A stretch of 64,000 nucleotides of DNA from an uncultured virus (IMG/VR IMGVR_UViG_3300042471_000812) (IMGVR_UViG_3300042471_000812); one strand, 5' to 3'; counted from the first letter of the stretch, positions 25,266 to 61,298 are shown. The notes: generated by a model not told the origin, from the sequence alone. Program-made: numbers and translations.

Positions 25266-25916
25266 ATGAGATACATAGCTTATGGTAGGACATCTACCAA
25301 CAAACAGGACAATGGCATTGAGGTTCAGCGCCAGGCATTGCAGACCTACAACCCTGAGAAGTGGTTTATTGAGCAGGAGAGTGGTAAGAATAAGGAGCGG
25401 CCTCAGCTTCTTGCAGCGTTAGAGTATTGCAAGGAGCATGATTGCACGTTGTTATTCTATAAGATTGACCGATTGGCTAGGGACGCCGAATATGCACTAA
25501 AGATTAAGAACTCTGGTGTAAAGTTACGCTGCCACACCATGCCGGAGATTAACACGATGGTATTTGGTATTTTTGCTGTTATCGCCCAAGATGAGGCTGA
25601 GACCATTTCCAAGCGGACAAAGGAAGCCCTTAACATCTTAAAGCAGAATGGCAAGAAGTTGGGTTATTATTCCCACAAGCAGGAGTTACCTAGGGAGCAT
25701 TTTAACTATATGCAGGAGCGTAGTGTTGAGGTTCGTAGGGAGAGGTCTAAGGCTAGGCTTAGTAATGCTGTTAGGCTTGCTAGGAGGTTTAAGGATTCGG
25801 GTATGAGTTATGCTGCTATTGCCGAGGAGTTTAATGCTCTTGGCATGAAGAGTTCTAGGGGTAAAGGGTTTTTGCCTATGACTGTTCAAAGGCTTATTCG
25901 TTTCGGCGCGGTATGA
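25266..25916 (+). CDS. Serine recombinase (resolvase/invertase family)
   Basis: YGRTST catalytic Ser, ESGKNKERPQL, KIDRLAR, ISKRTKEAL, C-terminal HTH. Confidence 0.9.
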   Translation: MRYIAYGRTSTNKQDNGIEVQRQALQTYNPEKWFIEQESGKNKERPQLLAALEYCKEHDCTLLFYKIDRLARDAEYALKIKNSGVKLRCHTMPEINTMVFGIFAVIAQDEAETISKRTKEALNILKQNGKKLGYYSHKQELPREHFNYMQERSVEVRRERSKARLSNAVRLARRFKDSGMSYAAIAEEFNALGMKSSRGKGFLPMTVQRLIRFGAV

Positions 25917-26209
25917 CCTTCCCCTGCATAGGTTGTGGTGCGTGTTGCCGAAGGGTTGGTAGCATACAAAAGTTCCCCGAAGACCACCCTCTACACTTTC
26001 CCTACAAGAACACTAATGGTGTGTGTGAAAACCTTGTAGATAATCAGTGTAAGGTGTATAATGACAGGCCGTTAGTGTGTAATGTTGAGAAGCTCCGAGA
26101 GTTTTTAGGCGCCGAAAAGGAATCCTTTTACGCTGAAAACATCAAGTATTGTCGTATCTTTGCCAAAGAAGACGGCATAGATTATGATAATCATAGACAA
26201 ATCCCCTGA
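25913..26209 (+). CDS. YkgJ-family Cys-cluster (Zn/Fe-chelating) protein
   Basis: CIGCGACC...C...C.VY..RPLVC. Confidence 0.85.
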   Translation: MTFPCIGCGACCRRVGSIQKFPEDHPLHFPYKNTNGVCENLVDNQCKVYNDRPLVCNVEKLREFLGAEKESFYAENIKYCRIFAKEDGIDYDNHRQIP

Positions 26210-27506
26210 GAAAAAGTCTGCCCCCTACATCTGGCAAGACCCAGAGGTATCAAAAATGACCAAGAAGCAAGAAATCGCTTGGAGGGAAGAGGAGATACGA
26301 AGGTGGCGAGAAGGGTACAACGGCATTATGCCTTCCCACTATTTCGCCCTAAGCCAAGGCTTCATCAAGCTCCCATCAGGGAAAACCGTAAGACCTTGGT
26401 GGAGGGATTGGGACGCTGGATTGCACGAACAATATGAGAACGATAGGAAGAAACACAACTCCCTATATGTCTTTAAGCGTAGGCGATACGCCCTTACCAC
26501 ATACTTTGTTGGCTTTGAGCCGTTGCGCATAGCCCTTACCGATAAGGGTTCGGTGTGTGGCTTTACCTCTTGCGATGTCCCTCGCGGCAACACCGCGTAC
26601 AGGGAGAAGCTAATGGTAGCCTTTAGCAACTTTGATGCTCAGTGGAACTACACCAACCTAGACGCTAAAGACTTGAAGGATTTGGAGAAGGATAATGGCT
26701 TGCCGGATTGGGAAGTGTTCCGCACTGCCCCAGGCACTAGAGATGGCACCAAATTGCGTATTCAGTTTATGAAGAAGGAAAAGGTAGGCACTCTGGAGAA
26801 GTTTCGGGAAACGACAGATATAAGCGAAATAACCTATGCCCAGACATCTAGGAAGGAAAGCGATGCTGCCGCCTTTGAGGGTTTTACCATGAACTATTTG
26901 TTTGTAGATGAGTTTTTCCTTCACCCATACGCAAATAGGGTGTATGCTTCGGCGGAGGCTTCCCTTTCAGATGGCTTTGTGAGAACTGGAATGTTTATCA
27001 CTGGCGGTTCTTGTGGGGAGATGTCCCATCAAGGTATTGCCAATGCCAGAAGGGTTATCAAAGACAGCACCGATGGGAGCAAGGAGAGTGTGTTCTTTAT
27101 CCCCGGTTATGCTTGTGTGGATAAAGCCCCAGAGTTTGATGAGTTTGGCAATGAGACCGGCAAGATAGTTTCCTTCATGCATGGCAACGCTGGGCATCAC
27201 TATGTTGGCTCTAGGAGAATACACCAGCCGGCATACAGCGATGAGAAAAAGGCTAGGGATTATATCCTAAGCACTAGGGAGAAGTTATCAAGAAGCAGCG
27301 ATCCAACAAAGTTTCGTCAGTTTATGAAAGCCTATCCAATTACTTTGGACGAGTTGCTAGAGGCCAGTGGCGATAGTTTGCTCTCTGATGATATTATGGA
27401 GTATGCTAGGAGGCAGAAGAAGGCTATCCTAAACCAAAAGGACAAGGCGTTTATCGAGTATAAGTTCAAGCAGATAGATGGTCAGCTTAAAATCGTGCCG
27501 CTATGA
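26184..27506 (+). CDS. Terminase large subunit, N-terminal ATPase part
   Basis: KRRR Walker-A-like segment, LFVDEF Walker B, FFIPGY, YPITLDE; lies upstream of portal. Confidence 0.7.
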   Translation: MIIIDKSPEKKSAPYIWQDPEVSKMTKKQEIAWREEEIRRWREGYNGIMPSHYFALSQGFIKLPSGKTVRPWWRDWDAGLHEQYENDRKKHNSLYVFKRRRYALTTYFVGFEPLRIALTDKGSVCGFTSCDVPRGNTAYREKLMVAFSNFDAQWNYTNLDAKDLKDLEKDNGLPDWEVFRTAPGTRDGTKLRIQFMKKEKVGTLEKFRETTDISEITYAQTSRKESDAAAFEGFTMNYLFVDEFFLHPYANRVYASAEASLSDGFVRTGMFITGGSCGEMSHQGIANARRVIKDSTDGSKESVFFIPGYACVDKAPEFDEFGNETGKIVSFMHGNAGHHYVGSRRIHQPAYSDEKKARDYILSTREKLSRSSDPTKFRQFMKAYPITLDELLEASGDSLLSDDIMEYARRQKKAILNQKDKAFIEYKFKQIDGQLKIVPL

Positions 27507-28276
27507 AGACACTAAGTAAGTTAATGATACTAGAACACCCTCAGGCTGATGGGATTTATTACATGGGCACTGACCCTATACCTTTTGGAGATAGGGGGCA
27601 GGCACACCTAGAGACTGAGGAGCGAAGTAAACAATGCTCTGTGATTATTCGGGAGAACCCAGAGAATGAAAAGGCTCCCTATCCTGTGGCGTATTACCTT
27701 GCTAGGACTAATGATGTGGACTTTGTGTTTAATGAGACCTTTGCTTTGCAGAAGGCTTATAATGATTGCAAGAACAACTTAGAGCGTAATGCTGGGGGTG
27801 TGTTTATGCAGAGGTATGATGATTCAGGGTTGAGCAGGTATTTAAGCCATTATCCCTATTCGGCGCTTTTGGCTAATTGGCGGAATGCCAAGCTAGGGAA
27901 AGAAAAGAAAAGGCTTAGAGGCTGGAACAACGATAACAGCACCAAAGGGCCAGCAATCAAAGTATTGGTGGAATGGATAATCTATGGCATGGATTACTGC
28001 TGGGGATATGAGATTATTGAAGACATTGAAAAGTTGGGGGTAGAGAATACCGATATTGCCTGGGCGCTTATCGCTGCCCTGTTAGACTGGAAGCACCACT
28101 ACAACATCAGGGAGATTAAGTACCAAGAGCAGAAGCCAATCTACAAGACTGTGTATGTGAGTGAGGGCGGCAGGCCAGTGGCGAAAAGGATTAAACTAAG
28201 GGGTATCCAAGGCCACGAGGGTATAGACATGGACTTGAGGCTTACCCACAACCCAAAGTCAGATGGATTTTTTTAA
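27503..28276 (+). CDS. Terminase large subunit, C-terminal nuclease part
   Basis: ILEHP, YYMGTDPI, LERN, NTDIA RNase H-like acidic residues. Confidence 0.7.
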   Translation: MKTLSKLMILEHPQADGIYYMGTDPIPFGDRGQAHLETEERSKQCSVIIRENPENEKAPYPVAYYLARTNDVDFVFNETFALQKAYNDCKNNLERNAGGVFMQRYDDSGLSRYLSHYPYSALLANWRNAKLGKEKKRLRGWNNDNSTKGPAIKVLVEWIIYGMDYCWGYEIIEDIEKLGVENTDIAWALIAALLDWKHHYNIREIKYQEQKPIYKTVYVSEGGRPVAKRIKLRGIQGHEGIDMDLRLTHNPKSDGFF

Positions 28277-28300
28277 TATCTTTGTTGTAATTTTACCTGA

Positions 28301-30535
28301 ATGATTTTAACTTCACCTACTTCTGGGGTTTATATTAGCAGCTTGCCTGAGCAGGCATTGAGCGATGAGCAGATAACTCAAAAGTATCATTCTTTGGAAG
28401 AGTGGTATGCCCAATGTGTTCGGTTTGTGGCTGGAATGTATAACCGCCCCAACTACAATACTGGCCGGCCAGATGGCAGTGTGGTATCTTCCTTCACCAA
28501 TAGTGCTTTGTTTCAAAACACTCCGGTGCAGCAGATGATTAACAACTACATGTATTTTCATGGGGACCAGCCAAACGATAGGTTTTCCTATTTGTTTGAG
28601 GACCCTTTGCAGAATAAGGTATTGCCTGGGGGTGGTGGTTCGCTTATTATCCCTACCCCTTGGGAAAGGGGGCATCAGGTGTATAATTTGATTACTCACT
28701 TGATTGGCAGCTTTTCGGGCCGTATAGCCTATTCAAAGCTATCTATTCAGAACAATAGCAAGGAAGGTAGGGCAAAGGCCGAAAGTGAGCGTATGCAAGC
28801 CTATATGTTTGCCATGATGAAAAAGACTGGCATACTTGATGAGCTTGCTAATTTGGGTGTGGAGTATAACCCTTTCCCGGCTGCCTCAGACGCCGAATTT
28901 GAAGACCTAATGGAATACATCAACAACTTCCCCCAAGAGATTGAGGCGTTAAAGTTGATGAAGGATATTATCTTTAGGAACAACACCCCAGCGCTTATAG
29001 AGAAGATATTTTCAAACACGATTATAAATCGCATTGGTGCGATGCTCGTTGATACTGATGAAGAGGGTTATGTTCGCCACCATGTGGTACAGCCGCAGCA
29101 GGTAATCATTGACCAAGTTGGTGATGAGGATTTTTCCGATAGGGATAGGTTTGCTGGGTACATTGAGTTTTTATCTCCTGAGGAGGTTATCTCCAAGTAC
29201 AAGATAACTGATGAGGAAGAGCGTAACACTATTTATTCTATGGCTGGGGGTACGGTACCTACGGCCAATGATTTTTATGGTTCAGCACAAGGGTATTATT
29301 TCCCTTGGTGGTGGAGTGAAGGTGAAGGGCGTGTGGCTTGTGTTACTGCTTTTTGGAAGTCTTACAAGAATGTTGATATTGGGGATTTAATCGAGGGGAA
29401 AGGCCGCCGGAAGAAAGGAGACTTTATGTTTCAAACTATTCGGCGCGGTACCCTAATCGGAAACCAAATCCTAAAGAACTTTGGCGAGGATAAGAATATC
29501 GTAAGGAATCCCTTTAAGCCTAAAGAGGCTGTCCTTCCCATTCTTTCTGTTCGGCCGTACACTCGCATTGGTTACAACAAAAGCTTAGTGGATAGGCTTC
29601 GTGCTGCCCAAGACAAGATAGATGTCATGGAGGCAAAGATTACCGATGCCATAGCCCATGACTTAGGGAATGTGTATGTGTTTTATGGCGATGCCATTGA
29701 AACTGATGCCGATGAGTTTATGAGCGATATTAAGAAGAATCGCTTTACCTTTTTGCGTAGGAGTACCGGTGAGGACTTAGACCAAAGCGACTTCCAAAGG
29801 GTAATGGAAAAGCTTGATATGGGTATTACCCAGAACATCATGCACTACATAAACCTGAAAAAGGAGAAGCAAGCAGAGATGGAGGCTATTGCCTCAGTGA
29901 GCAAGATAGCCCTTGGGCAGCAGCAGACCTATGTAGGTATGAACACCCAAGTGAACACCATCGCCCAAAATGCTAAAGGCGTGGAATACTACTTTGCCTC
30001 AGTGATTAAGCTCTATGCCGATGTTATGCAGTATAGCATAGAGAAGCAGAAGCTTGTTTTAATTAACGATGGCGACAAGGAACTTGAAAGAGAGATACTC
30101 AGTGAGCGTGGCTCGGAGTATTTGAAACTTAATAAAGATTTCTCTTTTACCAAGTTGAATGTCCGGATAGTTGTTGAAGATGTTATCAACTCGGAGAGTA
30201 AGGGAAGGTTAATGCAAATGGCTGTGGCAATGGCTCAGAGTGGCCAGATGGATATGCTTGATTATTTACGCATAGAGACTGCCAACACTTACAACGAGCT
30301 TATGAATTACTTTGAGGCTGCAATCCGCAGGAAGAAGAAGGAAGAGGCTCAGATGAAGGCTATGCAGCAAATGCAGCAGATGGCCGCTATTGAAGCCCAA
30401 GGGCAGCAGTTAGCACAGCTAGAGGCTATGAAGCAAGATGGCCAAGATGCTCGCCATGCCGATAAGATGGAGCTTGATGCTACTAAGTTGGGGCTAGAAA
30501 CTGGGGAAAAATTGATGTTAAATAATAATATGTAA
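28301..30535 (+). CDS. Portal protein
   Basis: 744 aa after terminase; SLVDRLRAAQD motif; Q-rich C-terminal coil as in crAss-like portals. Confidence 0.8.
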   Translation: MILTSPTSGVYISSLPEQALSDEQITQKYHSLEEWYAQCVRFVAGMYNRPNYNTGRPDGSVVSSFTNSALFQNTPVQQMINNYMYFHGDQPNDRFSYLFEDPLQNKVLPGGGGSLIIPTPWERGHQVYNLITHLIGSFSGRIAYSKLSIQNNSKEGRAKAESERMQAYMFAMMKKTGILDELANLGVEYNPFPAASDAEFEDLMEYINNFPQEIEALKLMKDIIFRNNTPALIEKIFSNTIINRIGAMLVDTDEEGYVRHHVVQPQQVIIDQVGDEDFSDRDRFAGYIEFLSPEEVISKYKITDEEERNTIYSMAGGTVPTANDFYGSAQGYYFPWWWSEGEGRVACVTAFWKSYKNVDIGDLIEGKGRRKKGDFMFQTIRRGTLIGNQILKNFGEDKNIVRNPFKPKEAVLPILSVRPYTRIGYNKSLVDRLRAAQDKIDVMEAKITDAIAHDLGNVYVFYGDAIETDADEFMSDIKKNRFTFLRRSTGEDLDQSDFQRVMEKLDMGITQNIMHYINLKKEKQAEMEAIASVSKIALGQQQTYVGMNTQVNTIAQNAKGVEYYFASVIKLYADVMQYSIEKQKLVLINDGDKELEREILSERGSEYLKLNKDFSFTKLNVRIVVEDVINSESKGRLMQMAVAMAQSGQMDMLDYLRIETANTYNELMNYFEAAIRRKKKEEAQMKAMQQMQQMAAIEAQGQQLAQLEAMKQDGQDARHADKMELDATKLGLETGEKLMLNNNM

Positions 30536-30558
30536 CTTTGCAATCTAAAACGACAAAT

Positions 30559-31515
30559 ATGGCAGAGACAACAGACGAAGAGGTATTAGTACCTCAGGTG
30601 GCAAACACCACCGAAGAGACATCGGCAGGCGCCCCTGAAACAACCCCAGAGGTTGCAGATGAGGTAGAAGTCGAATCATTTGAGGAGGACCCTGACTACA
30701 AGGACTTCTACACTGGGCCAAAAGCCCCAGCGGAAGGCGATAAGGTTAGTATCTCCCCAGAGGAGTATAGTTCTTTGAAGCAAGCTGCCTCAGAGTTAGA
30801 GCAGCTCAAAAACAACCCTACTGCCTTGGCGGTGCTTAACCACTTCACAAGTGGAGGTACTGCGGAGCAGCTAGCGGCACGTTTTGACACTCGTGATTAC
30901 ACCAAGATGAGTGAGGTTGAGCTTTACCGCTTAGACTTAGCAAGTGTTCCTGGGGTAACTCAAGAGGAGATAGACGATGAGCTTGAGCGCTTTGAGGATA
31001 TGTCTGCTGTTCAGCGTAAGCGTTTAGCTGCCGATATTCGGGAAAGGCTAGAGCGTAGCCGCAACAAAGGTGCTGATGAGCTAGTAAGCTCTGTGGAGAA
31101 ATCCAAGCAACAAGAACAGCAGGTGCTTGCAAACTTTAATAAAGAATTTGAGGCTGAAATTGAGAAGTGGGAAAAGAAAGGTAAATACTTTGGCTTGAAC
31201 TATGACAAGCAAATGGCGGGCAAGGTTCGTCAGTTTGTCAAGGAAACCAATGGCCTAATTTTCATCAATTCTGATGGAAGCTTAAATGCTCGGAACTTCC
31301 ACACTGCGGTAGTTGCCCTTCTAGACCTTCCCAGATTAGCAAGTGCTAAGTTAAACGAAGGTGTTAGAAAAGGTGTACGAAACGTTGTTAAAGAAGTCCA
31401 TAACGCCGGAGATAAAAGTACCTCTCCTGGCGGCTCTGAAAACCCACAGTCAACAAAACGAATCGATGATCCGTATGAGTCTTGGGTAAGGAGTCAATCT
31501 GGTGCTAAACGTTAA
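30559..31515 (+). CDS. Capsid scaffolding protein (acidic)
   Basis: Acidic N-terminus, coiled coil, located between portal and capsid; probable ATG at 30559. Confidence 0.6.
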   Translation: MAETTDEEVLVPQVANTTEETSAGAPETTPEVADEVEVESFEEDPDYKDFYTGPKAPAEGDKVSISPEEYSSLKQAASELEQLKNNPTALAVLNHFTSGGTAEQLAARFDTRDYTKMSEVELYRLDLASVPGVTQEEIDDELERFEDMSAVQRKRLAADIRERLERSRNKGADELVSSVEKSKQQEQQVLANFNKEFEAEIEKWEKKGKYFGLNYDKQMAGKVRQFVKETNGLIFINSDGSLNARNFHTAVVALLDLPRLASAKLNEGVRKGVRNVVKEVHNAGDKSTSPGGSENPQSTKRIDDPYESWVRSQSGAKR

Positions 31516-31526
31516 AATTAACTAAC

Positions 31527-32936
31527 ATGGCTTTTCAGTCGCTTGATTTATCAACAAACCTGACGCTTCGTGGCCTAAACGATGTAAATCGCCCACAAGC
31601 TGTCTATGACGTTAGTGGAGGGTATCGCTCTCTATACTACGTTATGAGTATCATCTCAAACACTACTAAACAATTCCCCGGTTCACCTGAGGTTCCCTAC
31701 TCTGTGGGTTACAACTCTACCGACCGCCGGTTCCAAACCACTTACCTTGATGATTTAAGCATCATTGCCACTATCCAAAGCAGAACTGTTGTTGGGGTAA
31801 ATTTAGTTCTTACCATCACTGGTGTGAACAACGATGCTTTCCGTCGTGGGGACGTTGTGCTTGGAGGAATGGATTTCTCTCGCTTAGGGCAGGTGGTAAC
31901 CGCTACCGCTGGCACTATTGAGATTGCTCCTTTCCAGCCTTTGAATGCTTTCGCCGTTACCGACTTTGCTGTTGGTGCTTTCGTGCGTGTAGCGTTTGAC
32001 TCTTCCAACGTAGTACGTTCTACCGGTAAGACTTCTCTAACCGTTACCCCTCGTACCGATTGGAATACCATTTCTACCATTCGGGATTCTTTTGAATGGT
32101 CTTTGCAAAACACCAATGTAGCCTCTTTGATTTCAAAGGTTGGCGATGGTGGCTTGTGGCAAAACGCCCAGATTAACCTAACCTCTCAGCGCATGCTTAC
32201 GAGCATTGACAAGGCGATGTTAATCTCTCAGCGCGCACAATCCAACAATGCTTTGGGTGAGCAAGATACCTTCGGAGGTCTTGATTGGGCTTTGCGTAAC
32301 CGCAATGGCTATGTTGTTGACTTGCAAAATGCAATGACTCGTGGTCAGTTTGACGATTTCTTGACTGAGGTTACTCTTCGCAAGAGTGGTAACAGACAGA
32401 ACATTGGTCTTCTTGTTATGGGTACTCAAGCCTTCAACCGCATCAGTTCTTTCGGAAATGGAGACTTTATCCGTTACCAACGTGATTTGAGCGATGGCGA
32501 TAAGACTCTGGGTGTAAACTTCCAATATGTAGAGATTTCCGGTCGCCGGTTTGCTCTTTACATTGCCGATGTTCTTGACAACCGTTTCTTCTTCCCAGAA
32601 ACCTCTACGATTGCTGGTGTGAATGGAACTATCAAGTCCAATGACATCTATTACATCGACACTGAGCCAATCAAAACTGACAATGGCATGGGCTTCAAGC
32701 CAGCCGTTGAGATGTTGCACTGGTCTCCCGATGGCACCCCTGGTGGTGGTCAACCCTTCTATGCTGGTATGATCAATGGTATGAACAATGCTGTTGTTAG
32801 CTCTGCTGACATCATTTCTGCTTCTGCCAACAATGTGGTTACTCCCGTTGAAGGTTCGGCTTTGCATTTGATGTACAAAGGTGGTATGAACATGATTACC
32901 GGTGAGTTCTCTGGTAAAATTGGTTATTTGTTCTAA
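31527..32936 (+). CDS. Major capsid protein
   Basis: Position, 469-aa size, biased highly expressed codon usage, TFGGLDW-type motif. Confidence 0.75.
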   Translation: MAFQSLDLSTNLTLRGLNDVNRPQAVYDVSGGYRSLYYVMSIISNTTKQFPGSPEVPYSVGYNSTDRRFQTTYLDDLSIIATIQSRTVVGVNLVLTITGVNNDAFRRGDVVLGGMDFSRLGQVVTATAGTIEIAPFQPLNAFAVTDFAVGAFVRVAFDSSNVVRSTGKTSLTVTPRTDWNTISTIRDSFEWSLQNTNVASLISKVGDGGLWQNAQINLTSQRMLTSIDKAMLISQRAQSNNALGEQDTFGGLDWALRNRNGYVVDLQNAMTRGQFDDFLTEVTLRKSGNRQNIGLLVMGTQAFNRISSFGNGDFIRYQRDLSDGDKTLGVNFQYVEISGRRFALYIADVLDNRFFFPETSTIAGVNGTIKSNDIYYIDTEPIKTDNGMGFKPAVEMLHWSPDGTPGGGQPFYAGMINGMNNAVVSSADIISASANNVVTPVEGSALHLMYKGGMNMITGEFSGKIGYLF

Positions 32937-32955
32937 TTTTTAAAACTAATAAGAT

Positions 32956-34245
32956 ATGTCACTATTATCAAATCCCCGTCCTTTAGCATTTGTAATGAAT
33001 GCTCCCGTTGCCACTAACTTTAGCGTTGCGAACGGCCTGATTAGCATTTCTGGTTTGACCGATGCGCTTCCTAAATTTTCTACCCTTCGTCTTTTGACTG
33101 AGGGGTTGGAGGAGAGCCAAGTTGCCCAGACTTCTAATTTCAGCGTTGCTTTTACCGCAGCTGCTAGCACAACCTATGCACTTAATGTAACTGGTGTGAA
33201 CACTTTAACTGGCCTTACTGAGGCTCGCAAAGTGTCTTTCACTTCTGGTGTAACTTTTAGTGCTGCTGGAATTGCTGCTGCTTTGGTTAACTTGGTGAAC
33301 TCTTTGCCTTTCGGCGCTACCGCCACTGGCACAGGTACTCCTGTTACCATTTCCGGTTTAGCGTCTTTGGTTGTTGTTGATGCTGGTAACACTACTGTTA
33401 CCTCTGGCAATGCTGTTATTGCCCCCAATGCCACGGCTAGCACTGCTATCACTCAGAGCATCGCTCCGAATGGTACTGCTGCTACTGCTGTTGCTGGTAC
33501 TGCTACCGTAACTGTTACCACTGCTGCTGCTCATGGATTGCTTCCTGGCGACGTTGTAGATTTGGCTGGTGCTGCCACCTTCCTTTTCGTTGATGTTCGC
33601 CCTGGTTCCCTTCAAACTGCTGCTGCTTCTGTTGACAATGTTATCGTTGCTAGCGTACCAACTTCTACCACTTTCACCTTGCAAGGTGTGAGAGGTAACG
33701 GAAGCACCAACGCTGGCACTTTGACAATCACCACCAAGAACGTAGTTACTGTTACTACTTTAGCTGCTCATGGTTTGGTTGTTGGAAACGCAGTTAGCGT
33801 GAGTGGTGTTGCTACTTTGACTGTGAATGGAGGTGCTGCCTTCACTTCACTTGTTCGTAGCGTACCTGCCACCGACAAACTTGTGTTGTTGGGTGCTGGA
33901 AATGGTTCTACCAACTCAGGCACTATCGTAATTACCCGGATTGCCCAACCTGCCAAGGGTTACAACTATGGCACTAAGGTTGGTACTGGAGTTAATTCCG
34001 AGTGGCGTGCTGCTGATGGCTCTGGAGCTGTTACTGCCAACCAAGGTTACACTTTGTTAGGTCTTGAGTATGCGAATGATGTTGTTGACAACATTTCTAT
34101 TCGTCAGGCTCAAAGCCAGCAAGTGTATATCTTGTTGAATGAGGGTGCTACTGGTTATGGTGCTTCTGTGAAGGCTCTTCAAGAGATTCTAAGCAACTGG
34201 GCGCCTAACACCACCCTTGCCAATCCAGCTTCTATTGCTCCCTGA
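32956..34245 (+). CDS. Capsid decoration/auxiliary virion protein
   Basis: A/T/G/V-rich beta protein with two VTT..AHGL..GD/N.V repeats; follows the capsid gene. Confidence 0.6.
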   Translation: MSLLSNPRPLAFVMNAPVATNFSVANGLISISGLTDALPKFSTLRLLTEGLEESQVAQTSNFSVAFTAAASTTYALNVTGVNTLTGLTEARKVSFTSGVTFSAAGIAAALVNLVNSLPFGATATGTGTPVTISGLASLVVVDAGNTTVTSGNAVIAPNATASTAITQSIAPNGTAATAVAGTATVTVTTAAAHGLLPGDVVDLAGAATFLFVDVRPGSLQTAAASVDNVIVASVPTSTTFTLQGVRGNGSTNAGTLTITTKNVVTVTTLAAHGLVVGNAVSVSGVATLTVNGGAAFTSLVRSVPATDKLVLLGAGNGSTNSGTIVITRIAQPAKGYNYGTKVGTGVNSEWRAADGSGAVTANQGYTLLGLEYANDVVDNISIRQAQSQQVYILLNEGATGYGASVKALQEILSNWAPNTTLANPASIAP

Positions 34246-34268
34246 GTAATATCGGATTGAATAAAATT

Positions 34269-34298
34269 AGCCCCTTCCTTTTTGGTTGGGGCTTTTTT
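34269..34298 (+). terminator. Intrinsic terminator after the capsid operon
   Basis: AGCCCC...GGGGCT followed by TTTTT. Confidence 0.75.
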
Positions 34299-34720: not shown

Positions 34721-34723
34721 CCC

Positions 34724-35020: not shown

Positions 35021-35042
35021 CACGAAATTAAACTGAAACAAA

Positions 35043-48523: not shown

Positions 48524-48549
48524 CAAAACGCGCCGAAAAGCAATAATCA

Positions 48550-53100: not shown

Positions 53101-56100
53101 TAAAGGTAGATGGTAAGGGTAGGGAGTTAGTAACTTCTATGTTAGAGCGTTCTGCTATTGAGTTTGATAGGGGTGTTGTTGGTGTTGGTACGCGTCAGGT
53201 TGCTGAGGCTACTTCTCCTTTGGAGGTAACTTTCGAGCCTATTCCCGAAACGGGGGGCGCGCCGAAGGTTGAAATAATTGCCAAGCGTAGGCAGAAGTTA
53301 AACAAGGACAGGACTAAGTTAGTACCTACTGGTGGTTTTGATTATTTCGCAAAGGTAGGGGATAGAGAGGTTAAGTTAAGTGATGCTGAGTATAAGGCAT
53401 ATAAGGATAGCGGTGTGTTGCCTGAGAGTGTTTCGGCGGTTGAGGCTACTCCGAAAGTTGAGGGGGAGGCTGTTACTCCTGAGGCGGTTTCTCCTGAGGT
53501 TCCTGCGTTAAGAGATGTAGAGAGTACGGCTGAGGCGTTGGAGGGGGTTAATAATAAAAACCCACAAGAAATTATTGACGCTTCAAAAAAAATAGACAAA
53601 GTTGAATATATTGAAGAAGGTGAAGCAAGGGAAATTATAGAAAGTTACACTCATTATAAAAGTGGGAACTCAAAATCTCCAGCAACAAGATGGGCGGGAT
53701 GGTTTCAATCTATAAACGCAGCAAATAAAAAGTTTATAGTTGAAGATATACAAAATGACCCTAAATTAAGAAATGCAATGCTTTCTTTATTTTTTGATGT
53801 ATATAAGTCAGAGTTAAACTTCAAGGGCTCTTTTGATGATTTTTTAAATACCGAAATTACTCTTTATAGGGGTGTTACTTTGGCTGATAAAAAGGGCGTT
53901 GGCCAAGAAGGATTTTCAGCTTTTTCTACTACAAAAAATAGGGTTTCTGCATACGCTGATGAACAAGCCATAGGCAAAGGACAAGTTAAAGAAATTAAAA
54001 TAAAGCCCATTGATACTTATGGTGCTGTGAATTATATTGGAGGTGGAGAGATAGAGGTTTTAGTCCCAACTGAATTTAAAAATGAAACAATAAGGCAAGA
54101 TTTTATCAGGCTTTTAGAATTAAATATAGGATTGTTTAGTGAAGAGCAAACAGAGCTGCTTGAGAAATACTACGACAAAGAAGATTACATATCTGGATTG
54201 GCATTTATCAAATCTATAATTTCTTCCAAACCAAAACAACTTTCCGAAGCCTACCACAAGGCGAAGGAGGACGGAAGCAATCCTGAGTTAGTTAGTGCGG
54301 TAGAGGAGTTGTTAGGCAAACCCACCCAAACGCCCGAAGTCGCCGAAGGGCAACCTGCCGAGGTTATTTCCCCAGAGGTAGCGGAAGTGTTATCAACCGA
54401 GGACACCACACGTATTGCGTTAGAATCGCTAGAGGTGTTACCTGAGGGCATAGAGAGTGCCGAGGAAGGTGCGCGTATCTACCACGAAGCGATAGGCAAG
54501 GAGGAGCGTACTGAGGCTGAGGACGCTGTTGTTATGGCGGTGGAGGATGCGGTTATTGGTGGTGCGGTTGTGCCTGAGGTGGAAACTCCCGAAGCGGTAG
54601 AAACCGCCGAAACAGTTACCCCCGAAGAGGTATCTACCGAGGGTGTTACCCCAGAGGTTCCTGGGGTGGTGGAAGCCGCCGAAGGGCAAAGGCAGCCAAG
54701 TCGTGTAGCCACCTTTTTCTCTGGTGCAGGCACAATGGAAGCGTCTTTACCCAACGCCCAATCTGTTATGGCTGTTGAGTTCAACCCAGCGTACGTTGAA
54801 GCGTACAACAAAGCCTTTGGTGTTGAGTATGAAGCCAAAGATGTTAGGGATATTAACCCTGAGGAAGTGATAGCTTCTAAGCCGGACATATTCCATGCTT
54901 CTCCTGTTTGCAAGAACTTTTCGGCGGCCAAGAATAAACGAACAGTTTTGAAGTCAGATATGGAATCGGCTGATGCTGTTGCGAGGGTTATTCGTGAGGC
55001 ACAACCACCGATTGTAACGATAGAAAATGTTCCTGACTACCAAGGCACTGTTCCATTTGAAACAATAGTAAAGGCGTTAGAAGATGCGGGCTACACCTTT
55101 GATGTTGGAGTTTACAACTCTGCGGATTTCGGTGGTGTTCAAAATAGGGAGCGTCTGTTAATTCGTGCTGTGAAGAGTGGCGAACTGCCACCTATCCAAG
55201 AGAAAACTGCTCCTGGGGATTGGTATTCTGCAATAGAGGATTTGATTGAAGGCGCTCCGGATTCAAAGTTTGAATCTAGGAGTGAGAGTGAGAATTGGGA
55301 GATGACTAGGATTAAGGATATGGTGCGTAAGGGTAAGTTAGATGCAACCAAGCCAATCATTACTATGGGTGGTTCTGCTTCTAGCGGTGTGGCTGCTGCT
55401 GCCAATGCTGGCGGCCCTGCGCCTACGTTATTAAGCACTTCGCGTTCTGTTCCAAGGATTATTTTGCCTGATGGCACAGTTAAGAGGGTAACTCCTGAGA
55501 TGATGCGTAGGCTTATGGGATTGCCTGAGAGTTATCCTATACCTTCCAACCCAAAGATTGCGAAGGAAGTTTTGGGGAATGGCGTTGATGGAGCGTTTAC
55601 TAGGGCGTTGATTGACCCGTTGTTGAATCGCGCCGAAACGCAACCCAGCGCCGAAGCGCAACCCAGCGCCGAAGGTTTAACTTCTAAGGAGAAAGCAGAA
55701 CAAGCCAACAAGCGCGCCGAAGAGATAGCCGAAAAGATACGCAAGAATTTAAGAGGTAGGGGCGGCATTACAGGCATAACGCCTTTTTCTCGCGCCAAGC
55801 GTTTAGCGGAGGTGGATAGGGCTACCCTTGCGTTGATTAAGGATTACATTTACCAAAAGGTTCTTGCCGGTGCATACACCTTCAAGGATTTTGTGGAGGA
55901 TATGAAGGAGAACAGCAAGCGGATTTTTGGTGTGCAGATTGAGGTTGCTAATTCTGATAAATCAATATTCCATTCAGCGCAGTCTCGTTTTGAGATAAAC
56001 GATGCTTTTGCTCAGGAGATATTGGATTTGAAAGATGATTTTCTCTTTTCTATTGCCGCTATGTCTGGCCGAATGAATATGAATTTTCAGGAGTTTATAT

Positions 56101-59100
56101 CTTCAAATAGTGCATTGGTTAACGGATTTGTGAATCGCGCCGAAAGCATTTACGGTTTAGACGATCAAGCTATGATGTTAGTGCAAGAGATGTACCAAGA
56201 CGCGTTACGTGCTGCTGCCAACCGCGCCGAATCGTACACTACTCTAGAAGATGTAAAGAAGTTCCACGAAACCAAGGAAGAGTTGTTAGGCTTAGAGAGG
56301 GACATGGAAAGGGCGCGTATCAACGAAGAGATAAAGCGTAGGCGTAACTGGTTGAGCAGAAACTTTGACAAGTTCCAGCGTGCGTTTATTACTCCTGTGA
56401 AAAACTTTAATCGTGCGTTTGGGTATAGGGCTGGTAAGTTTTCCGATTACAGAACTTCGCAAGAGCGTGATGTATATTCTGCACGTAAGTATCGTATGGG
56501 TGCTTCCACCAAGGCAGGCAATTGGTACAATGCTATCCACAACAAGATTTATGGTGGGTTGTCTTGGTTTGAGAAGGTAGAGTTAGACAAGTATTTGATT
56601 TATCGTAGGATTGTAGAGGTTTCTGAGGTACGCAATCAAAGGGCTGCGGAGTATAAGAAACTCGAAGCTGAATTAGCGGCTGGCGTTACTCCGGTAAGAA
56701 AGCAAGAGATTAAGGAGGCTATGGCGGAGCTTGAAAAGGCGGGCATGGGTGAGGTTAAGAGTGGTTCGATTATGGTTGATGGTAAGAAGGAGGAATACAC
56801 TGTTGCGCTTGCTGAGGCGTTTGTGAATGACATAAACGCTCGTAATGATGCTTTGGCAATCAAAATTAGGAATCGCGCCGAAATGTACACTGAGGCTAAC
56901 AATGAGTTGTTAAAAATGCGTTTAGATTCAGGCGAAATATCTCAGGAGGCTTACGATTCAATGCAGAAGCGTGATTATGTTCGCAGGTTGTTTGTTGACC
57001 TTTCAAACACAACCTTAGATGAAGCAAATTATTCCCCTGTATCTAAAGAGATAAAAGCTATCAAGGAAGGTAGTGAGGACGCAATATTGGAGATGGATAC
57101 TCAGGCTTTGTTGCAGATTAACGCTCAAATAACTTTCGATAGTGTTGCTAAAAACAACTTCATTAAAAAGGTTGTTGGTTGGTCGGAAGCTAAGCAGCAG
57201 GATTATTTAGACAAGGCGCTTGAAAAGTTCAAGGACGCTCGTGCTAGAACGGAGAGGTATCTTCGTTCTAGTCCTAGGCCATTAACTCAAGACGAGATAG
57301 ACAGATTCATAAAGGAGCAGACGTTATTTATTCCTTTGAGTAATGATGCGAAGGTTCCTAGTGGGTTTACTGCGCAGAAGTATTTTGTAGATGGTGTTGA
57401 GAAGAGGGTTGCTGTTCGTAATGATATTGCAAACATATTTCAAACGCCAAGTGGAAGGGGTATTAACGAGAACAGTTTTGCTATTAAGGCTATATCTGCG
57501 CTTCTTTTAACTCCGGTCATTAAGGCTTCGGCGGTATTTGTAAACCCAGCGTTTGCGATAGGTAACTTTGCCCTTGACGTAATTCATGCGTCAATGGTTA
57601 CTAGGGATTTGTATAAGTCGTTTACTTTTAACCTTGGTACTATTTTGGCAAAGGCTACGGGATATACTGCGGAGAACATATATCGCAAGGCGGTGAAGTA
57701 TGGTGCTTCCCTTTTTGGTAGAACTGCCAGGGATTCAAAGTTCGAGCGTCTTGTAAAGGATTACTTTGAGCATGGTGGAGGTATGTCTGGCCTTTCCAAT
57801 CCTTCGTCAAGAATGTATAGTGATAAGCTGTCTAGTAGTGCTTTGCGTAGGAGCTTTGGTGATGCTATGGATGGTATTATTGCTGTGTTGGACGTAATAA
57901 ATTCTTTGCAATCGGGTTCGGAGCTTATTACTAGGGTTATTGTTTATGAGGCTGCATTGGATAAAAACATAGCGGCGTATAGGGAGAAGAATGGTGTTGA
58001 CCCAGTTGGGGAGGATTTAGCGTTAATGAAGATGTCTGCGGCGGCGAGTTCTGCTGATTTGATTGATTTCAGGGAAGGCGCCGAAGCAACAAAAGCGTTC
58101 GACCAAACCCTTCTGCCTTTCTTAAACGCTATGATTCAAGGTGCCAAGGCAGAGATTGATTTTGCATCCAAGAATCCTTTACTTGCTGCTGCAAGATTGG
58201 CAGAGTTTGGAGGTATGGCACTTGGGGCTGCTCTGTACAATGCTAATTCCGGAGATGAAGATGAAAAAGAGGGTATCGTTGGCTACAATGGTATTACCGA
58301 TTACATAAAGTCGAACTTCTTTGTAATGATGATGCCTTGGACTAAGAAGAATGAGCGTGGGGAAATTGTCCGTCCGTTCATATCAATTAAGTTGCCTGCT
58401 GCGTTAAAGGCCACGAACATTTTGGTTAGCGGTATGGTTGCTGACCAAGGGGCGGAGAATACTATTGGCCAAATGGCAAGTGCGTTAGAGGGTGGTTATG
58501 TTCCTGAGATTGGTTCTGTATCTCCTACCGCCCAGATTTTTATGGCTTTGAATTACAATAGGGATGCGTTTAGGAAGGGCGCTCCGGTGTATCGTGGTAG
58601 GGCAGACGTGTTATTAACTGAGCGTTTCAACGCAGGGGAAACGAAGGCTATTTATCGTGATTTGTTTGGTGCTATGTATGATTTAATCAATGAGGATGGC
58701 GAGAATGAGGGTGTTTTAGGTTTTGATGAGGCGGGGCCGGCGCAATGGCAAGCGGCTTTCGAGAAGGCAATATCTTCAAACAATCCATACTACCTTGGCA
58801 TTACGTCCACCTACGCGACCATATCTTCGCTATACGGCAAGGATAATAAGAAAGAGGTAGATGCGCTTATGGACGAGAAGTTTGCTGCCTTAAATGCGTT
58901 TGGGAGCAGAGTATATCGCGAGCCGAATAGTAGTGTTCAGCAGAAGAATATGAAGGATAGGAAACAGGTTGATTTCCTTCGCGACCAGATAGGTTCTTGG
59001 CAAAAAAAGAACGATGATGCTATTGAGTTTGCTGCCAAGACGATACGGGATATTAACAAGTTAGAGGGTAACTCGAAGAATGTTAAAATAGATTTATTCT

Positions 59101-59618
59101 TTGACAGGGAGGTGTTTAATTATATTTCTGATGCTCAAATGATTAAGGGGATAAAGGATCAAGGCATAAAAGATATTCCTGAGAACTTAGATGACCTTAA
59201 TAAAGTTATCAATAAAGAGCAAACTCGTTTGTCGTTGAGACTTTTAGAAGAGTTTAAACCAAACTTTGTTTTCAAGCATCCGGCGTTAAAGAGTTATGCG
59301 CAGAGTGAGGATTCTTATGTTGGTTTAAACGCCGAAATGATTAACAAAATTGCTAAAGAGTATGACAGTTCTAGGAATAGGAGGTCATATCTTATTGCGT
59401 TGAAGTTTGTTGCTGGTGATGATTTTAAGAATATCGTTCAACAAATTGGGGCGCACGAAAGGGACTTGTCTGTTGTAGAAGGTATTACAGAAACTACGAG
59501 TGCAACTAAGTACAAGCGACTTTATCTTCGTCCTGATAATAGAAGCTCAAAGCCAATATCCTCCGAGTCTGCAATAAACAATTTGATACTGCTAAAATAT
59601 TTATTGACAAATGAGTAA
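50178..59618 (+). CDS. Giant polyvalent virion protein with ART-like and C5-cytosine MTase domains
   Basis: LYRG/FSAFST/EIEVLV at ~53860-54065; FFSGAG, SPVC, ENV, QNRER, RRLMGLP, LGNGV at ~54700-55600; LPD38-like PFLNAMIQG near the C-terminus. Confidence 0.8.
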   Translation: MSKEILKGIFEENIAPVREDITFEGWVDKIRDNEEYKVGLFENYVQPSMPEATFEEFNSNAFGSLGKVEAPLAGAQSEESFSPTESVSSEFEVGPPAGGTPPGVEPKGAPVAEAAALVGEVGSEGEPTIIGQELDPYTIVEEDDRNFFERLFGEERYRRVTERAVETIPALTRLFGKAAAKDVQEEINDLGRAMEADPEFVIKASQNGLFTTNNLATYLSQEAAGDKKGAEEINMFLEKGATGKTTQFERFKTLYAPIEKERNEAIQKELLSNRDYVALRGKIDAEFNSQRVGVDEKYDFKALMGEEFKVGEKELLGKYESATLALPMQLETKASELKFDYQTKVNNGQMGVNEANEGLKRDLDAYGAELQKQSDEALGEYNSGVSALAERVQKGVKDKPEFKAYMDELNDLRNGVVESFSGDYQKIQQAVFNNIAPKYNSKIESAITNSMKGETPLLNKSGVKGNIDKILGNRGWDYLPFDQKKAALDTMFGTALSKLKRSGVQINDGVVAGLRAEFDDAFMDRAYFTKKGTPSLFMVKTRAIEEAERLDEMLKEREAKTGTKTYTSGIYGSEFGVGGMGYDDTDVQELRLAREKLQEIIEMPETMSDNEWSNFWNGLTSGKVVDYLPFVSGLKNLSGTLALYRAVGKDTESARYLKNAEALNSTYKNMYEVNNMASDWYRAGRGTAESLPFMMEFAATAGIGSGVRIATEKVAVKLLGKQAETMVGKSFKVLAGTLVSSLAQTTLNPQRYVDETLKRMTPQMTIAFSPEGDDLVAMLDSSDAEGGFEAALKGFGVTASEYFSEGLGFAGARAMKALGSKMLQNEFLKKAYVGWYMSKFNLDTPTAFKKIAEMGGWNGFLMEFGEELVNIPLTNLITGDAKVMEGIIKDGEFDTENLADIARTLLPISLAGGSVSLGGLAINKIAPEGVTVTYRDINNLPTTETINKGVWDAVTEVMKSPSKVRDFIANELPKLKVDGKGRELVTSMLERSAIEFDRGVVGVGTRQVAEATSPLEVTFEPIPETGGAPKVEIIAKRRQKLNKDRTKLVPTGGFDYFAKVGDREVKLSDAEYKAYKDSGVLPESVSAVEATPKVEGEAVTPEAVSPEVPALRDVESTAEALEGVNNKNPQEIIDASKKIDKVEYIEEGEAREIIESYTHYKSGNSKSPATRWAGWFQSINAANKKFIVEDIQNDPKLRNAMLSLFFDVYKSELNFKGSFDDFLNTEITLYRGVTLADKKGVGQEGFSAFSTTKNRVSAYADEQAIGKGQVKEIKIKPIDTYGAVNYIGGGEIEVLVPTEFKNETIRQDFIRLLELNIGLFSEEQTELLEKYYDKEDYISGLAFIKSIISSKPKQLSEAYHKAKEDGSNPELVSAVEELLGKPTQTPEVAEGQPAEVISPEVAEVLSTEDTTRIALESLEVLPEGIESAEEGARIYHEAIGKEERTEAEDAVVMAVEDAVIGGAVVPEVETPEAVETAETVTPEEVSTEGVTPEVPGVVEAAEGQRQPSRVATFFSGAGTMEASLPNAQSVMAVEFNPAYVEAYNKAFGVEYEAKDVRDINPEEVIASKPDIFHASPVCKNFSAAKNKRTVLKSDMESADAVARVIREAQPPIVTIENVPDYQGTVPFETIVKALEDAGYTFDVGVYNSADFGGVQNRERLLIRAVKSGELPPIQEKTAPGDWYSAIEDLIEGAPDSKFESRSESENWEMTRIKDMVRKGKLDATKPIITMGGSASSGVAAAANAGGPAPTLLSTSRSVPRIILPDGTVKRVTPEMMRRLMGLPESYPIPSNPKIAKEVLGNGVDGAFTRALIDPLLNRAETQPSAEAQPSAEGLTSKEKAEQANKRAEEIAEKIRKNLRGRGGITGITPFSRAKRLAEVDRATLALIKDYIYQKVLAGAYTFKDFVEDMKENSKRIFGVQIEVANSDKSIFHSAQSRFEINDAFAQEILDLKDDFLFSIAAMSGRMNMNFQEFISSNSALVNGFVNRAESIYGLDDQAMMLVQEMYQDALRAAANRAESYTTLEDVKKFHETKEELLGLERDMERARINEEIKRRRNWLSRNFDKFQRAFITPVKNFNRAFGYRAGKFSDYRTSQERDVYSARKYRMGASTKAGNWYNAIHNKIYGGLSWFEKVELDKYLIYRRIVEVSEVRNQRAAEYKKLEAELAAGVTPVRKQEIKEAMAELEKAGMGEVKSGSIMVDGKKEEYTVALAEAFVNDINARNDALAIKIRNRAEMYTEANNELLKMRLDSGEISQEAYDSMQKRDYVRRLFVDLSNTTLDEANYSPVSKEIKAIKEGSEDAILEMDTQALLQINAQITFDSVAKNNFIKKVVGWSEAKQQDYLDKALEKFKDARARTERYLRSSPRPLTQDEIDRFIKEQTLFIPLSNDAKVPSGFTAQKYFVDGVEKRVAVRNDIANIFQTPSGRGINENSFAIKAISALLLTPVIKASAVFVNPAFAIGNFALDVIHASMVTRDLYKSFTFNLGTILAKATGYTAENIYRKAVKYGASLFGRTARDSKFERLVKDYFEHGGGMSGLSNPSSRMYSDKLSSSALRRSFGDAMDGIIAVLDVINSLQSGSELITRVIVYEAALDKNIAAYREKNGVDPVGEDLALMKMSAAASSADLIDFREGAEATKAFDQTLLPFLNAMIQGAKAEIDFASKNPLLAAARLAEFGGMALGAALYNANSGDEDEKEGIVGYNGITDYIKSNFFVMMMPWTKKNERGEIVRPFISIKLPAALKATNILVSGMVADQGAENTIGQMASALEGGYVPEIGSVSPTAQIFMALNYNRDAFRKGAPVYRGRADVLLTERFNAGETKAIYRDLFGAMYDLINEDGENEGVLGFDEAGPAQWQAAFEKAISSNNPYYLGITSTYATISSLYGKDNKKEVDALMDEKFAALNAFGSRVYREPNSSVQQKNMKDRKQVDFLRDQIGSWQKKNDDAIEFAAKTIRDINKLEGNSKNVKIDLFFDREVFNYISDAQMIKGIKDQGIKDIPENLDDLNKVINKEQTRLSLRLLEEFKPNFVFKHPALKSYAQSEDSYVGLNAEMINKIAKEYDSSRNRRSYLIALKFVAGDDFKNIVQQIGAHERDLSVVEGITETTSATKYKRLYLRPDNRSSKPISSESAINNLILLKYLLTNE

Positions 59619-60178: not shown

Positions 60179-60200
60179 TATCTTTGAAACAAAAATTGTT

Positions 60201-60299: not shown

Positions 60300-60301
60300 T
60301 T

Positions 60302-60457
60302 ATGTACGGAATGAAGAAAGCTGGCGGTAGCAAAACCGCTAAAATGGGCAAAATGGCTGGCAAAATGGCTGGCATGGTTGCTGGTGCTAAGGCTGGCGCT
60401 AAGGCTGGCAAGGCTATGGGCAAAATGGCTGCTGCCAAGGTGTCTAAGAAAAAATGA
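60302..60457 (+). CDS. 51-aa Lys/Ala/Gly/Met-rich peptide (not in the ORF track)
   Basis: MYGMKKAGGSKTAKMGKMAGK...KVSKKK*; ATGA-coupled to the next gene. Confidence 0.6.
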   Translation: MYGMKKAGGSKTAKMGKMAGKMAGMVAGAKAGAKAGKAMGKMAAAKVSKKK

Positions 60458-60759
60458 AGAAAGACTCTCGAATAGAGCGTGCAGGTGTGGCTGGGTTTAA
60501 TAAACCTAAGGCCACACCTTCCCACCCTACTAAGAGCCATATTGTAGTGGCTAAGGAGGGTGATAAGGTAAAGACTTTGCGCTTTGGTCAACAGAATGTC
60601 AAGACCAACCAAACTGTCGGGCAGAGGGAGGCTTTCAAGTCTCGCCATGCCAAGAACATTGCGAAGGGCAAAATGAGTCCTGCGTATTGGGCAGATAAGG
60701 TAAAGTGGTCTAGTTCCAAGACAAAATCTCCATCTAAGAAATGGGTTAAGGGAAGCTAA
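60454..60759 (+). CDS. Basic phage protein
   Basis: GFNKPK, KTLRFGQ, FKSRH, SPAYWA motifs. Confidence 0.75.
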   Translation: MKKDSRIERAGVAGFNKPKATPSHPTKSHIVVAKEGDKVKTLRFGQQNVKTNQTVGQREAFKSRHAKNIAKGKMSPAYWADKVKWSSSKTKSPSKKWVKGS

Positions 60760-61298
60760 TGTTACAGATAAATTTCACCGCCAATCTTGCAGAGAATTGC
60801 AAGGACATCAACTTGGTAGATACTACTGGGGATTATGATGCTGTAAACAATCCGGAAGGGTGGGGGGCGCCGAATGCGTCCACCTCTAACATTTCCCAGT
60901 CAAACATATACATAACCCCTCCAAGTGGCATAAGCTACATCATAGGCGCCACAGCGTTACTAAACGATGAGCAGACTATCTTAGGCACTTCAATAGGCTA
61001 TACTACCAAGTTGCCTGATGGCTATTACGACATAAGGTATGAGGTCCAGGGCACGTTTGGTGGGAATAGTGGTGTGTTGAGTAGTGAGCGTAAGAACGTG
61101 TTGTTTTACGGCAATGTATTCTGTTGCATTGAGAAGATGAATGTTGAGGGGGATTGTTTGTGTGAAACCTCTGAGCTTGAAGATATGCTGCTGTTGTTTG
61201 AGGCTATGAAGGCCGCCGATGAGTGTTGCGATATTGTTTGTGCCAAAAAGATACTTAATGAATTAACCAGGCGTTGTGCCAAAAAATGTAATTGCTGA
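60759..61298 (+). CDS. Cys-rich virion protein
   Basis: DTTG.Y...NP.GWG, LPDGYY, C-terminal Cys cluster. Confidence 0.6.
   Translation: MLQINFTANLAENCKDINLVDTTGDYDAVNNPEGWGAPNASTSNISQSNIYITPPSGISYIIGATALLNDEQTILGTSIGYTTKLPDGYYDIRYEVQGTFGGNSGVLSSERKNVLFYGNVFCCIEKMNVEGDCLCETSELEDMLLLFEAMKAADECCDIVCAKKILNELTRRCAKKCNC

Follow-up and report, generated by a model that had tools for sequence, protein, structure and literature searches.

The stretch of DNA analysed in this study (64,000 nucleotides (nt), referred to in full as the window) belongs to an uncultured virus recovered from a lake metagenome (IMG/VR IMGVR_UViG_3300042471_000812) and represents a near-complete phage genome, with genes on the minus strand from approximately 24.7 kb down to position 1 and on the plus strand from 25.3 kb to the end, according to a greedy open reading frame (ORF) set of our own rather than a curated annotation. 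Distributed over both arms is the heptamer CGCCGAA (TTCGGCG on the opposite strand), which occurs in 76 copies between positions 1 and 64000, 52 on the plus strand and 24 on the minus strand. Each copy tends to be accompanied by a local composition mark, which is a one-sided box of approximately 150 nt on the motif strand and not a symmetric flip. Dinucleotide-preserving shuffles yielded a mean of 3.67 copies and a maximum of 9, and CGCCGAA tops all heptamers in enrichment (18-fold under a second-order Markov model, with approximately 4.2 copies expected); the same word read backwards has 5 occurrences in the near-identical record G001.

Within the ORF set, 47 copies lie in gene sense, 22 are antisense and 7 are intergenic, so that the orientation bias (52:24 overall and 40:12 in the right arm) is confounded with gene sense. 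The mean spacing is 0.84 kb, with same-strand gaps of up to 7.7 kb. Over the 75-76 oriented copies, information extends from -18 to +13, defining an extended site of approximately 32 nt with a weak half-site, yCCGAw, 17-18 nt upstream of CGCCGAA, a preference for G at -1, and R-R-G-n-W-W-A on the 3' side; no conservation past +14 was found in the oriented alignment of copies. The plus-strand site at 26092-26123 illustrates this architecture, with the half-site, the exact CGCCGAA at 26110-26116 and then R-R-G-n-W-W-A. At three places the heptamer itself recurs at a tandem spacing of 17-18 nt, namely 55631-55673 (three plus-strand copies in an 18-nt tandem repeat inside a gene for a 3146-aa protein), 36560-36584 (a plus-strand double copy at 36560 and 36578) and 48514-48537. 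This spacing equals the distance to the weak half-site, suggesting that tandem heptamers might form two adjoining binding units set side by side.

Motif copies in general do not form a hairpin. Five early-arm spacers on the minus strand share a common element (17936-17998, 18428-18489, 19765-19835, 20307-20362 and 21451-21505), in which TTCGGCG opens a GC-rich, terminator-like hairpin with a T-run, followed by AAACCTTTAAC / CCTTTAAy repeats and then by the next ATG; besides 18428-18489, the elements lie near 17987, 19821, 20370 and 21495. The AAACCTTTAAC / CCTTTAAy repeats, placed immediately ahead of the ATG, may act as a promoter or as a signal for translation start in a Bacteroidota-type host.

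Keto skew (G+T-A-C) on the plus strand was compared between 150-nt arms to the left and right of each copy, using random positions in the same arm of the genome as the null. A first-pass annotation of the window had proposed that a skew change is anchored at CGCCGAA/TTCGGCG, and this was confirmed: the left-minus-right difference averaged +0.138 over the 75 scorable copies (null standard deviation 0.019, z=7.3) and +0.285 at third codon positions (z=8.2). Forward copies (z=6.6 at all positions, 8.1 at third positions) and reverse copies (z=3.1 and 3.2) share the same plus-strand direction, as had also been proposed, because the one-sided tract turns with the motif. The difference was positive at 60 of the 75 copies, exceeding +0.2 at 25 of them and falling below -0.2 at 2, compared with 10% of random sites above +0.2. 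All eight copies initially singled out have the left arm above the right, although those at 42660 and 37054 do so weakly. The restriction of the pattern to 25700-61000 did not hold, as the 26 copies outside that interval averaged +0.154 with 23 positive. Among the 60 strongest steps in the window, 21 fall within 40 nt of a motif where approximately 6 would be expected, and only 2 of the 60 strongest steps of opposite sign are near one. Single steps of equal size also occur away from motifs; the effect is an average over copies and not the dominant composition pattern of the window.

Oriented by motif strand, it is the 150 nt on the 3' side of CGCCGAA that are shifted to A+C at third positions. 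Among 29 isolated copies (no other within 400 nt), this stretch differed from the far flanks by -0.26±0.04 and the near-upstream 150 nt by just +0.05±0.03. The slow, saw-tooth drift back that had been described was replaced by a box ending near +150 nt: the best single step at the far end lies at +135 to +150, and for right-arm forward copies the skew drops from approximately +0.3 to approximately 0 for five 30-nt bins and recovers within one bin. Reverse copies of the right arm, read on their own strand, drop from approximately -0.22 to approximately -0.43 across the same stretch, and left-arm copies of both orientation groups shift by approximately -0.2. Examples include the tract of the forward copy at 26110 (26117-26266, plus strand, A+C shift on that strand), that of the reverse copy TTCGGCG at 25902-25908 (25752-25901, minus strand, A+C-rich on that strand with a third-position keto value of -0.84), the tract after the double copy 36560/36578 (36567-36716, plus strand, among the strongest steps in the window) and, in the left arm, the tract after copy 5093 (5100-5249, plus strand), where the motif is antisense to a minus-strand gene. 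Comparison with skew switches of the origin or terminus kind, which involve one or two sign changes and arms of many kilobases, failed, as the present pattern comprises 76 sites with one-sided 150-nt boxes.

The control comparisons show how closely the mark is tied to the exact word. At third positions, the downstream-minus-upstream difference was -0.285±0.038 for the exact heptamer (n=73; t=-7.6), and none of 1070 control 4- to 6-mers with at least 40 copies (116 of them containing CG) came close, ranging from -0.114 to +0.148; the most negative of these was CGCCG, a sub-word of the motif. A total of 65 one-mismatch heptamers located more than 200 nt from exact copies gave -0.017±0.036, and the 22 nGCCGAA words within this set, which leave the Ala-Glu codons unchanged, gave +0.03. 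Stratification by codon box and gene strand in a Mantel-Haenszel test yielded an odds ratio for keto-ending codons of 0.62 in sense tracts (z=-8.6, 1556 codons) and 1.44 in antisense tracts (z=+5.3, 990 codons). Therefore, the effect is synonymous and tied to the motif strand rather than the coding strand, which upholds the initial claim of independence from gene strand. A cause in gene boundaries was ruled out, because 30 copies lying more than 300 nt inside genes retain the effect. The idea that the tracts are copies of a repeat or mobile element was rejected, as they have no common sequence. Neither a second motif at the far tract edge nor a 10-11-nt periodicity within tracts was found. That the pattern arises by chance or from codon or amino-acid context is very improbable: equal-sized steps do occur elsewhere and the gene calls are our own, but the k-mer controls, one-mismatch controls, Mantel-Haenszel test and isolated copies are all contrary to it, and the effect persists at all positions without recourse to gene calls.

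On the motif strand of the tract, A and C are increased at the expense of G and T; among dinucleotides, TG, GG and GT fall and CA, AA, AC and CC rise. Because TG falls and CA rises on the same strand (TG being CA on the complement), the property is one of a single strand and not of the duplex, and the one strand concerned would act as single-stranded DNA or as RNA. A signal at the RNA level, in which the motif and an A/C-rich, poorly folding RNA work in transcripts or TTCGGCG serves as a terminator-type element, could draw on several of these features: the RNA of the motif-strand tract folds 5.0±0.9 kcal/mol more weakly than its flanks (the difference with DNA folding parameters is 1.1±0.5), gene sense accounts for 47 of the 69 copies inside genes, the five spacer copies fall within terminator-like hairpins where genes end, and the shift is larger in sense than in antisense tracts (-0.33 vs -0.18). 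However, antisense copies also carry the tract, turned with the motif at the z=+5.3 given above, and C is not in excess over G within tracts (0.216 vs 0.212), unlike a Rho loading site. An RNA-level explanation is consequently regarded as improbable.

A portal-profile scan of metagenomes recovered loci with approximately 98%, 89% and 82% nt identity to the window, and a primase-profile scan of IMG/VR added further left-arm loci at 78-96%. All of these close relatives carry the word, at densities of 0.8-1.45 per kb. In portal relatives of 42-54% identity, 44.5 kb of partly redundant sequence contained a single copy, and no word comparable to it was present; GGTGYTA and TGCCGAG were considered as substitute words in the distant relatives and rejected as codon-driven or inflated by near-identical loci. 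No larger contigs of this 42-54% portal clade were found, and the search for primase relatives in IMG/VR returned close ones alone.

Where window copies are covered in three relatives of 78-87% nt identity (L010, L029 and L028), 34 of 43 are kept, compared with a neutral expectation of approximately 11-12 of 43 that we estimated from regional identity. A tract of the same shape is present at 99 sites of four relatives in their own coordinates, sites that are not independent of the window, and at shared sites the two genomes match in their tract values (-0.41 and -0.39). Where the motif occurs in just one of the two genomes (20 sites), the carrier is lower in the tract by 0.165±0.055 (15 of 20 negative), with an upstream control of +0.07±0.06. 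Third-position differences at these gain/loss sites number 195 from keto to amino and 118 from amino to keto, and on the motif strand G>A outnumbers its reverse by 87:34 and T>C by 56:43. In relatives of the L010 group the motif lies at 25732, 170 nt from the window's copy at 25902, and the tract is shifted along with it; the stretch 25752-25901 reads +0.19 in these genomes. At 12795-12810, which is among the largest steps in the scan, the window reads CGCCGTA while L028 and L029 have the exact word, and the window tract remains (-0.29), so this looks like a recently lost copy.

The direction of change at the gain/loss sites corresponds to C>T and A>G on the complement, as the first-pass annotation had anticipated when it explained the pattern by repeated nicking or cutting at the motif followed by 5' resection, with the exposed 3' strand gaining such changes. 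A one-strand nick could also account for the one-sidedness, and the phage encodes nucleases and helicases. The excess of damage that this explanation calls for was not observed. Relative to L010, third-position divergence was 0.295 in tracts, compared with 0.43 on one flank and 0.37 on the other (approximately 0.40 pooled), a tract-flank difference of -0.10 (bootstrap 95% interval -0.16 to -0.04) with 8 of 9 sites lower; relative to L007 the difference was -0.025 and not significant. By our back-of-envelope estimate, damage sufficient to move the skew from approximately +0.3 to 0 would lift synonymous divergence by approximately a quarter or more. The lower divergence of tracts therefore argues against a footprint of added damage. 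Polarisation of window/L007 differences with L010 as the outgroup gave 0.035-0.041 transitions per site in tracts and 0.052-0.055 outside, and keto>amino transitions were not in excess (27 of 764 keto sites inside, or 0.035 per site, and 343 of 6181 outside, or 0.055 per site), with the 66 transitions in tracts being too few to judge bias. Additionally, the sharp edge at +150 is unlike the decay expected of run lengths, and a cut with two-sided resection predicts symmetry, while no more than a quarter of the effect is seen upstream. Added damage is thus the least favoured of the DNA-level readings and is considered a poor prospect, while the alternative given alongside it, that repair synthesis started at the motif, may still hold.

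The processes left by these results are selection acting on composition, one-strand shielding and repair with a bias, and the best explanation is that the tract is held by constraint or locally reduced mutation and not by added damage. Shielding would mean that a protein assembly loaded at the motif covers approximately 150 nt of the single-stranded CGCCGAA strand, which would then undergo fewer C>T and A>G changes; alternatively, short, polar stretches of heteroduplex that begin at the motif would be repaired with a strand bias, and in either case the tract itself would need no function. This explains the lower divergence, the fixed-length box, and the change from +0.3 to approximately 0 in right-arm forward copies with the opposite change in reverse copies. 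Against it, Lys and Glu codons take no part in the shift, an absence that is not predicted by a model of mutation or shielding alone; there is no known candidate protein, both strands would often have to be single-stranded, and the present data do not separate it from selection. Shielding or biased repair is accordingly viewed as a minor contender.

The gene content of the phage bears on which enzymes could act at the motif. Record G001 matches window positions 4197-64000 identically and extends 5.3 kb past the right end, and two relatives (L026 and L031) fuse window position 1 to this extra 5.3 kb (represented by L023, which is G001 1-6000); this indicates a map of approximately 69.4 kb that is circular or terminally redundant. 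The window and G001 share one break point across which the relatives read, and this break may mark a physical end or repeat. The virion genes of the window include a P22-type portal, a 1506-aa protein with a crAss muzzle domain and the 3146-aa virion-type protein (50178-59618, plus strand), which has a C5 cytosine methyltransferase domain at residues 1510-1805; large replacements between strains occur in the latter gene near 53467-54604, at contig joints. Three more DNA methyltransferases bring the number to four, and RadC, a small serine recombinase and a resolvase-like gene are also present. The muzzle-like protein has 22-26% identity to crAss-type phages of Flavobacterium, Cellulophaga and Bacteroides, its sole matches among 50,697 phage records, and a Bacteroidota host is likely on account of this similarity. 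DNA and portal-protein searches of the same 50,697 records gave no match, portal-profile and RadC-protein searches of genome contigs gave none, and a PDB sequence search with two replication-arm proteins returned nothing useful.

The left arm encodes, on the minus strand, a BT4734-like AEP primase-polymerase of 281 aa (1046-1891; Pfam PF08800, BT4734-like_N, E 7.8e-12, above the cut-off), which the first-pass annotation did not mention. The same strand encodes a clamp-like gene (2583-3632), a SNF2 helicase (3626-5221) and a Rad50/SMC-like ATPase (5683-6933), all belonging to replication and recombination, as well as a PD-(D/E)XK exonuclease (9301-10341) and a Mre11-like metallophosphoesterase (23715-24752). 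A second clamp-like gene lies at 18490-19764, and its C-terminal part also matches a RusA-like family. The initial nomination of the SNF2, PD-(D/E)XK, SMC-like and clamp genes and the C5 methyltransferase as components is counted here as unsupported. Neither the window nor the additional 5.3 kb yielded a recognisable DNA polymerase. A 91-aa minus-strand ORF with an RHS-repeat match (E 1e-9) at 21506-21781 is odd for an early phage region. Third-position keto skew of the plus strand is +0.26 in the right arm and +0.04 in the left arm. Cumulative GC skew is lowest near 10-12 kb, where a gene with a DnaA-C-like helix-turn-helix (11906-12253) adjoins and where a 540-nt spacer (10960-11498) carries a motif copy; this region may be an origin.

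Short oriented words with some of these properties are found in several known systems, of which Chi is the closest in distribution. In the parts of PMC12315714 drawn upon here, Chi in phages LLS (23 sites, 20 in one orientation) and P1 (50 sites) and in bacterial chromosomes is described as an exact word that is short and asymmetric and exceeds all others of its length in enrichment, occurring approximately once per 1-2 kb, with an orientation bias, gain and loss of copies between relatives, and action in one direction. A Chi-like hotspot would have TTCGGCG read on the 3'-ended strand by a helicase-nuclease, either host RecBCD/AddAB or a phage enzyme, and the G+T-rich 150 nt 5' of TTCGGCG could then be under selection as the end of the invading strand on which the recombinase loads. 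The present word is likewise over-represented, asymmetric, exact and orientation-biased, a single mismatch abolishes the tract, and the geometry fits, with the tract lying 5' of TTCGGCG on its own strand. The reported preference of RecA for binding TGG repeats (in a portion of PMC3763553) and the GT-rich preference of Rad51 (by the titles of papers cited there) would suit such a role, and the phage has exonuclease, Rad50-like, Mre11-like and resolvase-like genes.

Nonetheless, at 27 Chi sites in the first 50 kb of P1 (L032, 1-50000) the third-position difference, 3' minus 5', was +0.043±0.031 with a flat profile, in contrast to the 150-nt synonymous tract at the copies of this phage, and Chi-type action therefore does not by itself bring about such a tract. 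The 'islands of preferred pairing' at E. coli Chi (Tracy, Chedin and Kowalczykowski 1997), as far as that source is represented here, resemble the present case in being G+T-rich beside a recombination word. These GT-rich islands are disputed and, by the titles of Biaudet 1998 and Colbert 1998, ascribed to codon usage and gene orientation, whereas the mark in this phage is local, extends over 150 nt, follows the orientation of the motif in genes of either strand and is not seen where the word has one mismatch. As a separate observation, the P1 Chi sites, having no local third-position tract, provide a useful negative control for the question of GT-rich islands. Moreover, the word of this phage has a 32-nt bipartite context unlike Chi, Chi-rich lambdoid phages are described in the consulted parts of PMC12315714 as having no recombination genes of their own while this phage has some, and the distant 42-54% portal relatives have virtually no copies and no substitute word. 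A Chi-like role is therefore given a low standing, similar to that of shielding or biased repair.

DNA uptake sequences (USS/DUS) occur approximately once per kb in both orientations, within genes as well as at terminator hairpins, and their consensus is extended but weak. The word of this phage is comparable in density, placement and weak extended consensus. To our knowledge, uptake sequences have no polar composition tract, and they belong to chromosomes of competent bacteria whereas the present word is in a crAss-related phage. Membership in this class failed on the carrier being a phage with portal, muzzle-like and virion proteins, and on the near absence of the word from its 42-54% portal relatives. 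Strand asymmetry linked to replication has also been reported, reportedly including the Okazaki-junction signatures in eukaryotes of Reijns 2015. Mitochondrial strand gradients, as presented in the sections of PMC8565317 used here, share with the tracts a strand-asymmetric C>T/A>G-type composition linked to replication. Such patterns are kilobase gradients or set by chromatin, in contrast to 76 motif-anchored 150-nt boxes with lowered divergence.

The comparison with primase recognition sites is the one that we favour. The best explanation of the results as a whole is that CGCCGAA/TTCGGCG, together with its half-site, is a strand-specific, directional cis-acting site of this phage lineage. The data establish that the effect is specific to the motif, polar and a property of one strand, that it persists in relatives and that it is not accompanied by excess divergence; that the motif is read in a single-stranded state we infer from these properties, and that the event is priming, and which enzyme performs it, is a guess. 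Tentatively, the sites would be points at which DNA synthesis is initiated by the phage's own BT4734-like AEP primase-polymerase, or else points where some other transaction on single-stranded DNA starts, a reading that we place first while holding it with low confidence. Each site would be read while the DNA strands are apart, and the starting event would act on or cover approximately 150 nt in one direction; this stretch would be kept A+C-rich on the CGCCGAA strand, or equivalently G+T-rich 5' of the word on the TTCGGCG strand. In this way the phage would spread 'private' start sites at approximately one per kb, with the tract as a launch zone beside each start. The fuller version, a phage-private start code in which the primase-polymerase reads the heptamer at the spacing of lagging-strand fragments and a 150-nt launch tract is written into silent positions, is more doubtful still.

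Several observations support priming. The average of one site per 0.84 kb matches the length of lagging-strand fragments. The same genome encodes the AEP primase-polymerase, whose IIHLDID, GGVK and SYD motifs are kept in homologues of 43-97% identity, and the lack of a recognisable DNA polymerase in the phage is counted in favour of priming. The GAA-R-R-G run, from its sequence, would give a purine-rich primer start. Members of the BT4734-like AEP family prime and extend on single-stranded DNA, according to the portions of PMC11724360 and PMC5862659 consulted. The T7 gp4 primase offers a partial parallel, as it reads its word on a single-stranded template and G/T-rich template flanks assist in vitro, with binding up to 10-fold higher and longer primers (in the part of PMC6136900 relied on here).

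A number of points weigh against this reading. We know of no precedent for a bipartite primase site of approximately 32 nt, and the pRN1 primase word, which we take to be GTG, is short. The T7 recognition word is likewise short and falls within the 3-5 nt range of known primase words, which are not strongly enriched in the limited literature used here, in contrast to an exact 7-nt word that is approximately 20-fold enriched and paired with an AEP-type primase; no genome-wide composition tract at primase words was found in the literature searched. A primase-polymerase with no proofreading should raise the divergence of its products, which is lower instead, and by our derivation simple models of single-strand exposure between priming sites give the opposite sign in either orientation. 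The non-participation of Lys and Glu codons counts here as well. Forward copies on the plus strand leave a gap of 7.7 kb, from 28891 to 36560, the 52:24 orientation bias tracks gene sense at least as well as replication direction, and the five spacer copies in terminator-like hairpins could point to transcription. Finally, the relatives are not mutually independent and the gain/loss sample is small at 20 sites. Overall, priming is ranked first, followed by shielding or biased repair together with a Chi-like hotspot, and then by an RNA-level signal together with added damage, with the remainder assigned to something not yet thought of.

The skew change is a genuine feature with very strong statistical support, and it is more specific than first described. 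Chi, uptake sequences and primase words are all known examples of oriented, over-represented words. We know of no such word whose exact copies are each flanked on one side by an imprint of fixed length on silent positions, and searches of the limited literature covered here for the CGCCGAA word or for motif-linked local skew in phages returned nothing relevant. The imprint points to a sequence-specific, directional, one-strand event that is frequent or important enough to shape approximately 18% of the synonymous sites of the genome, and it provides a computational read-out of motif, direction and length that can be used on other phages. If the sites prove to be a recombination signal, it would be the first such signal to possess a genuine island of local composition. 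If they prove to be a start code, it would be the first cis-code for priming to span a genome, and synonymous sites would for the first time be seen to be shaped by such a code, through which a borrowed host replisome would copy phage DNA over host DNA. If the AEP primase-polymerase is indeed what reads the word, this would explain how a phage with no polymerase of its own steers replication to its own DNA.

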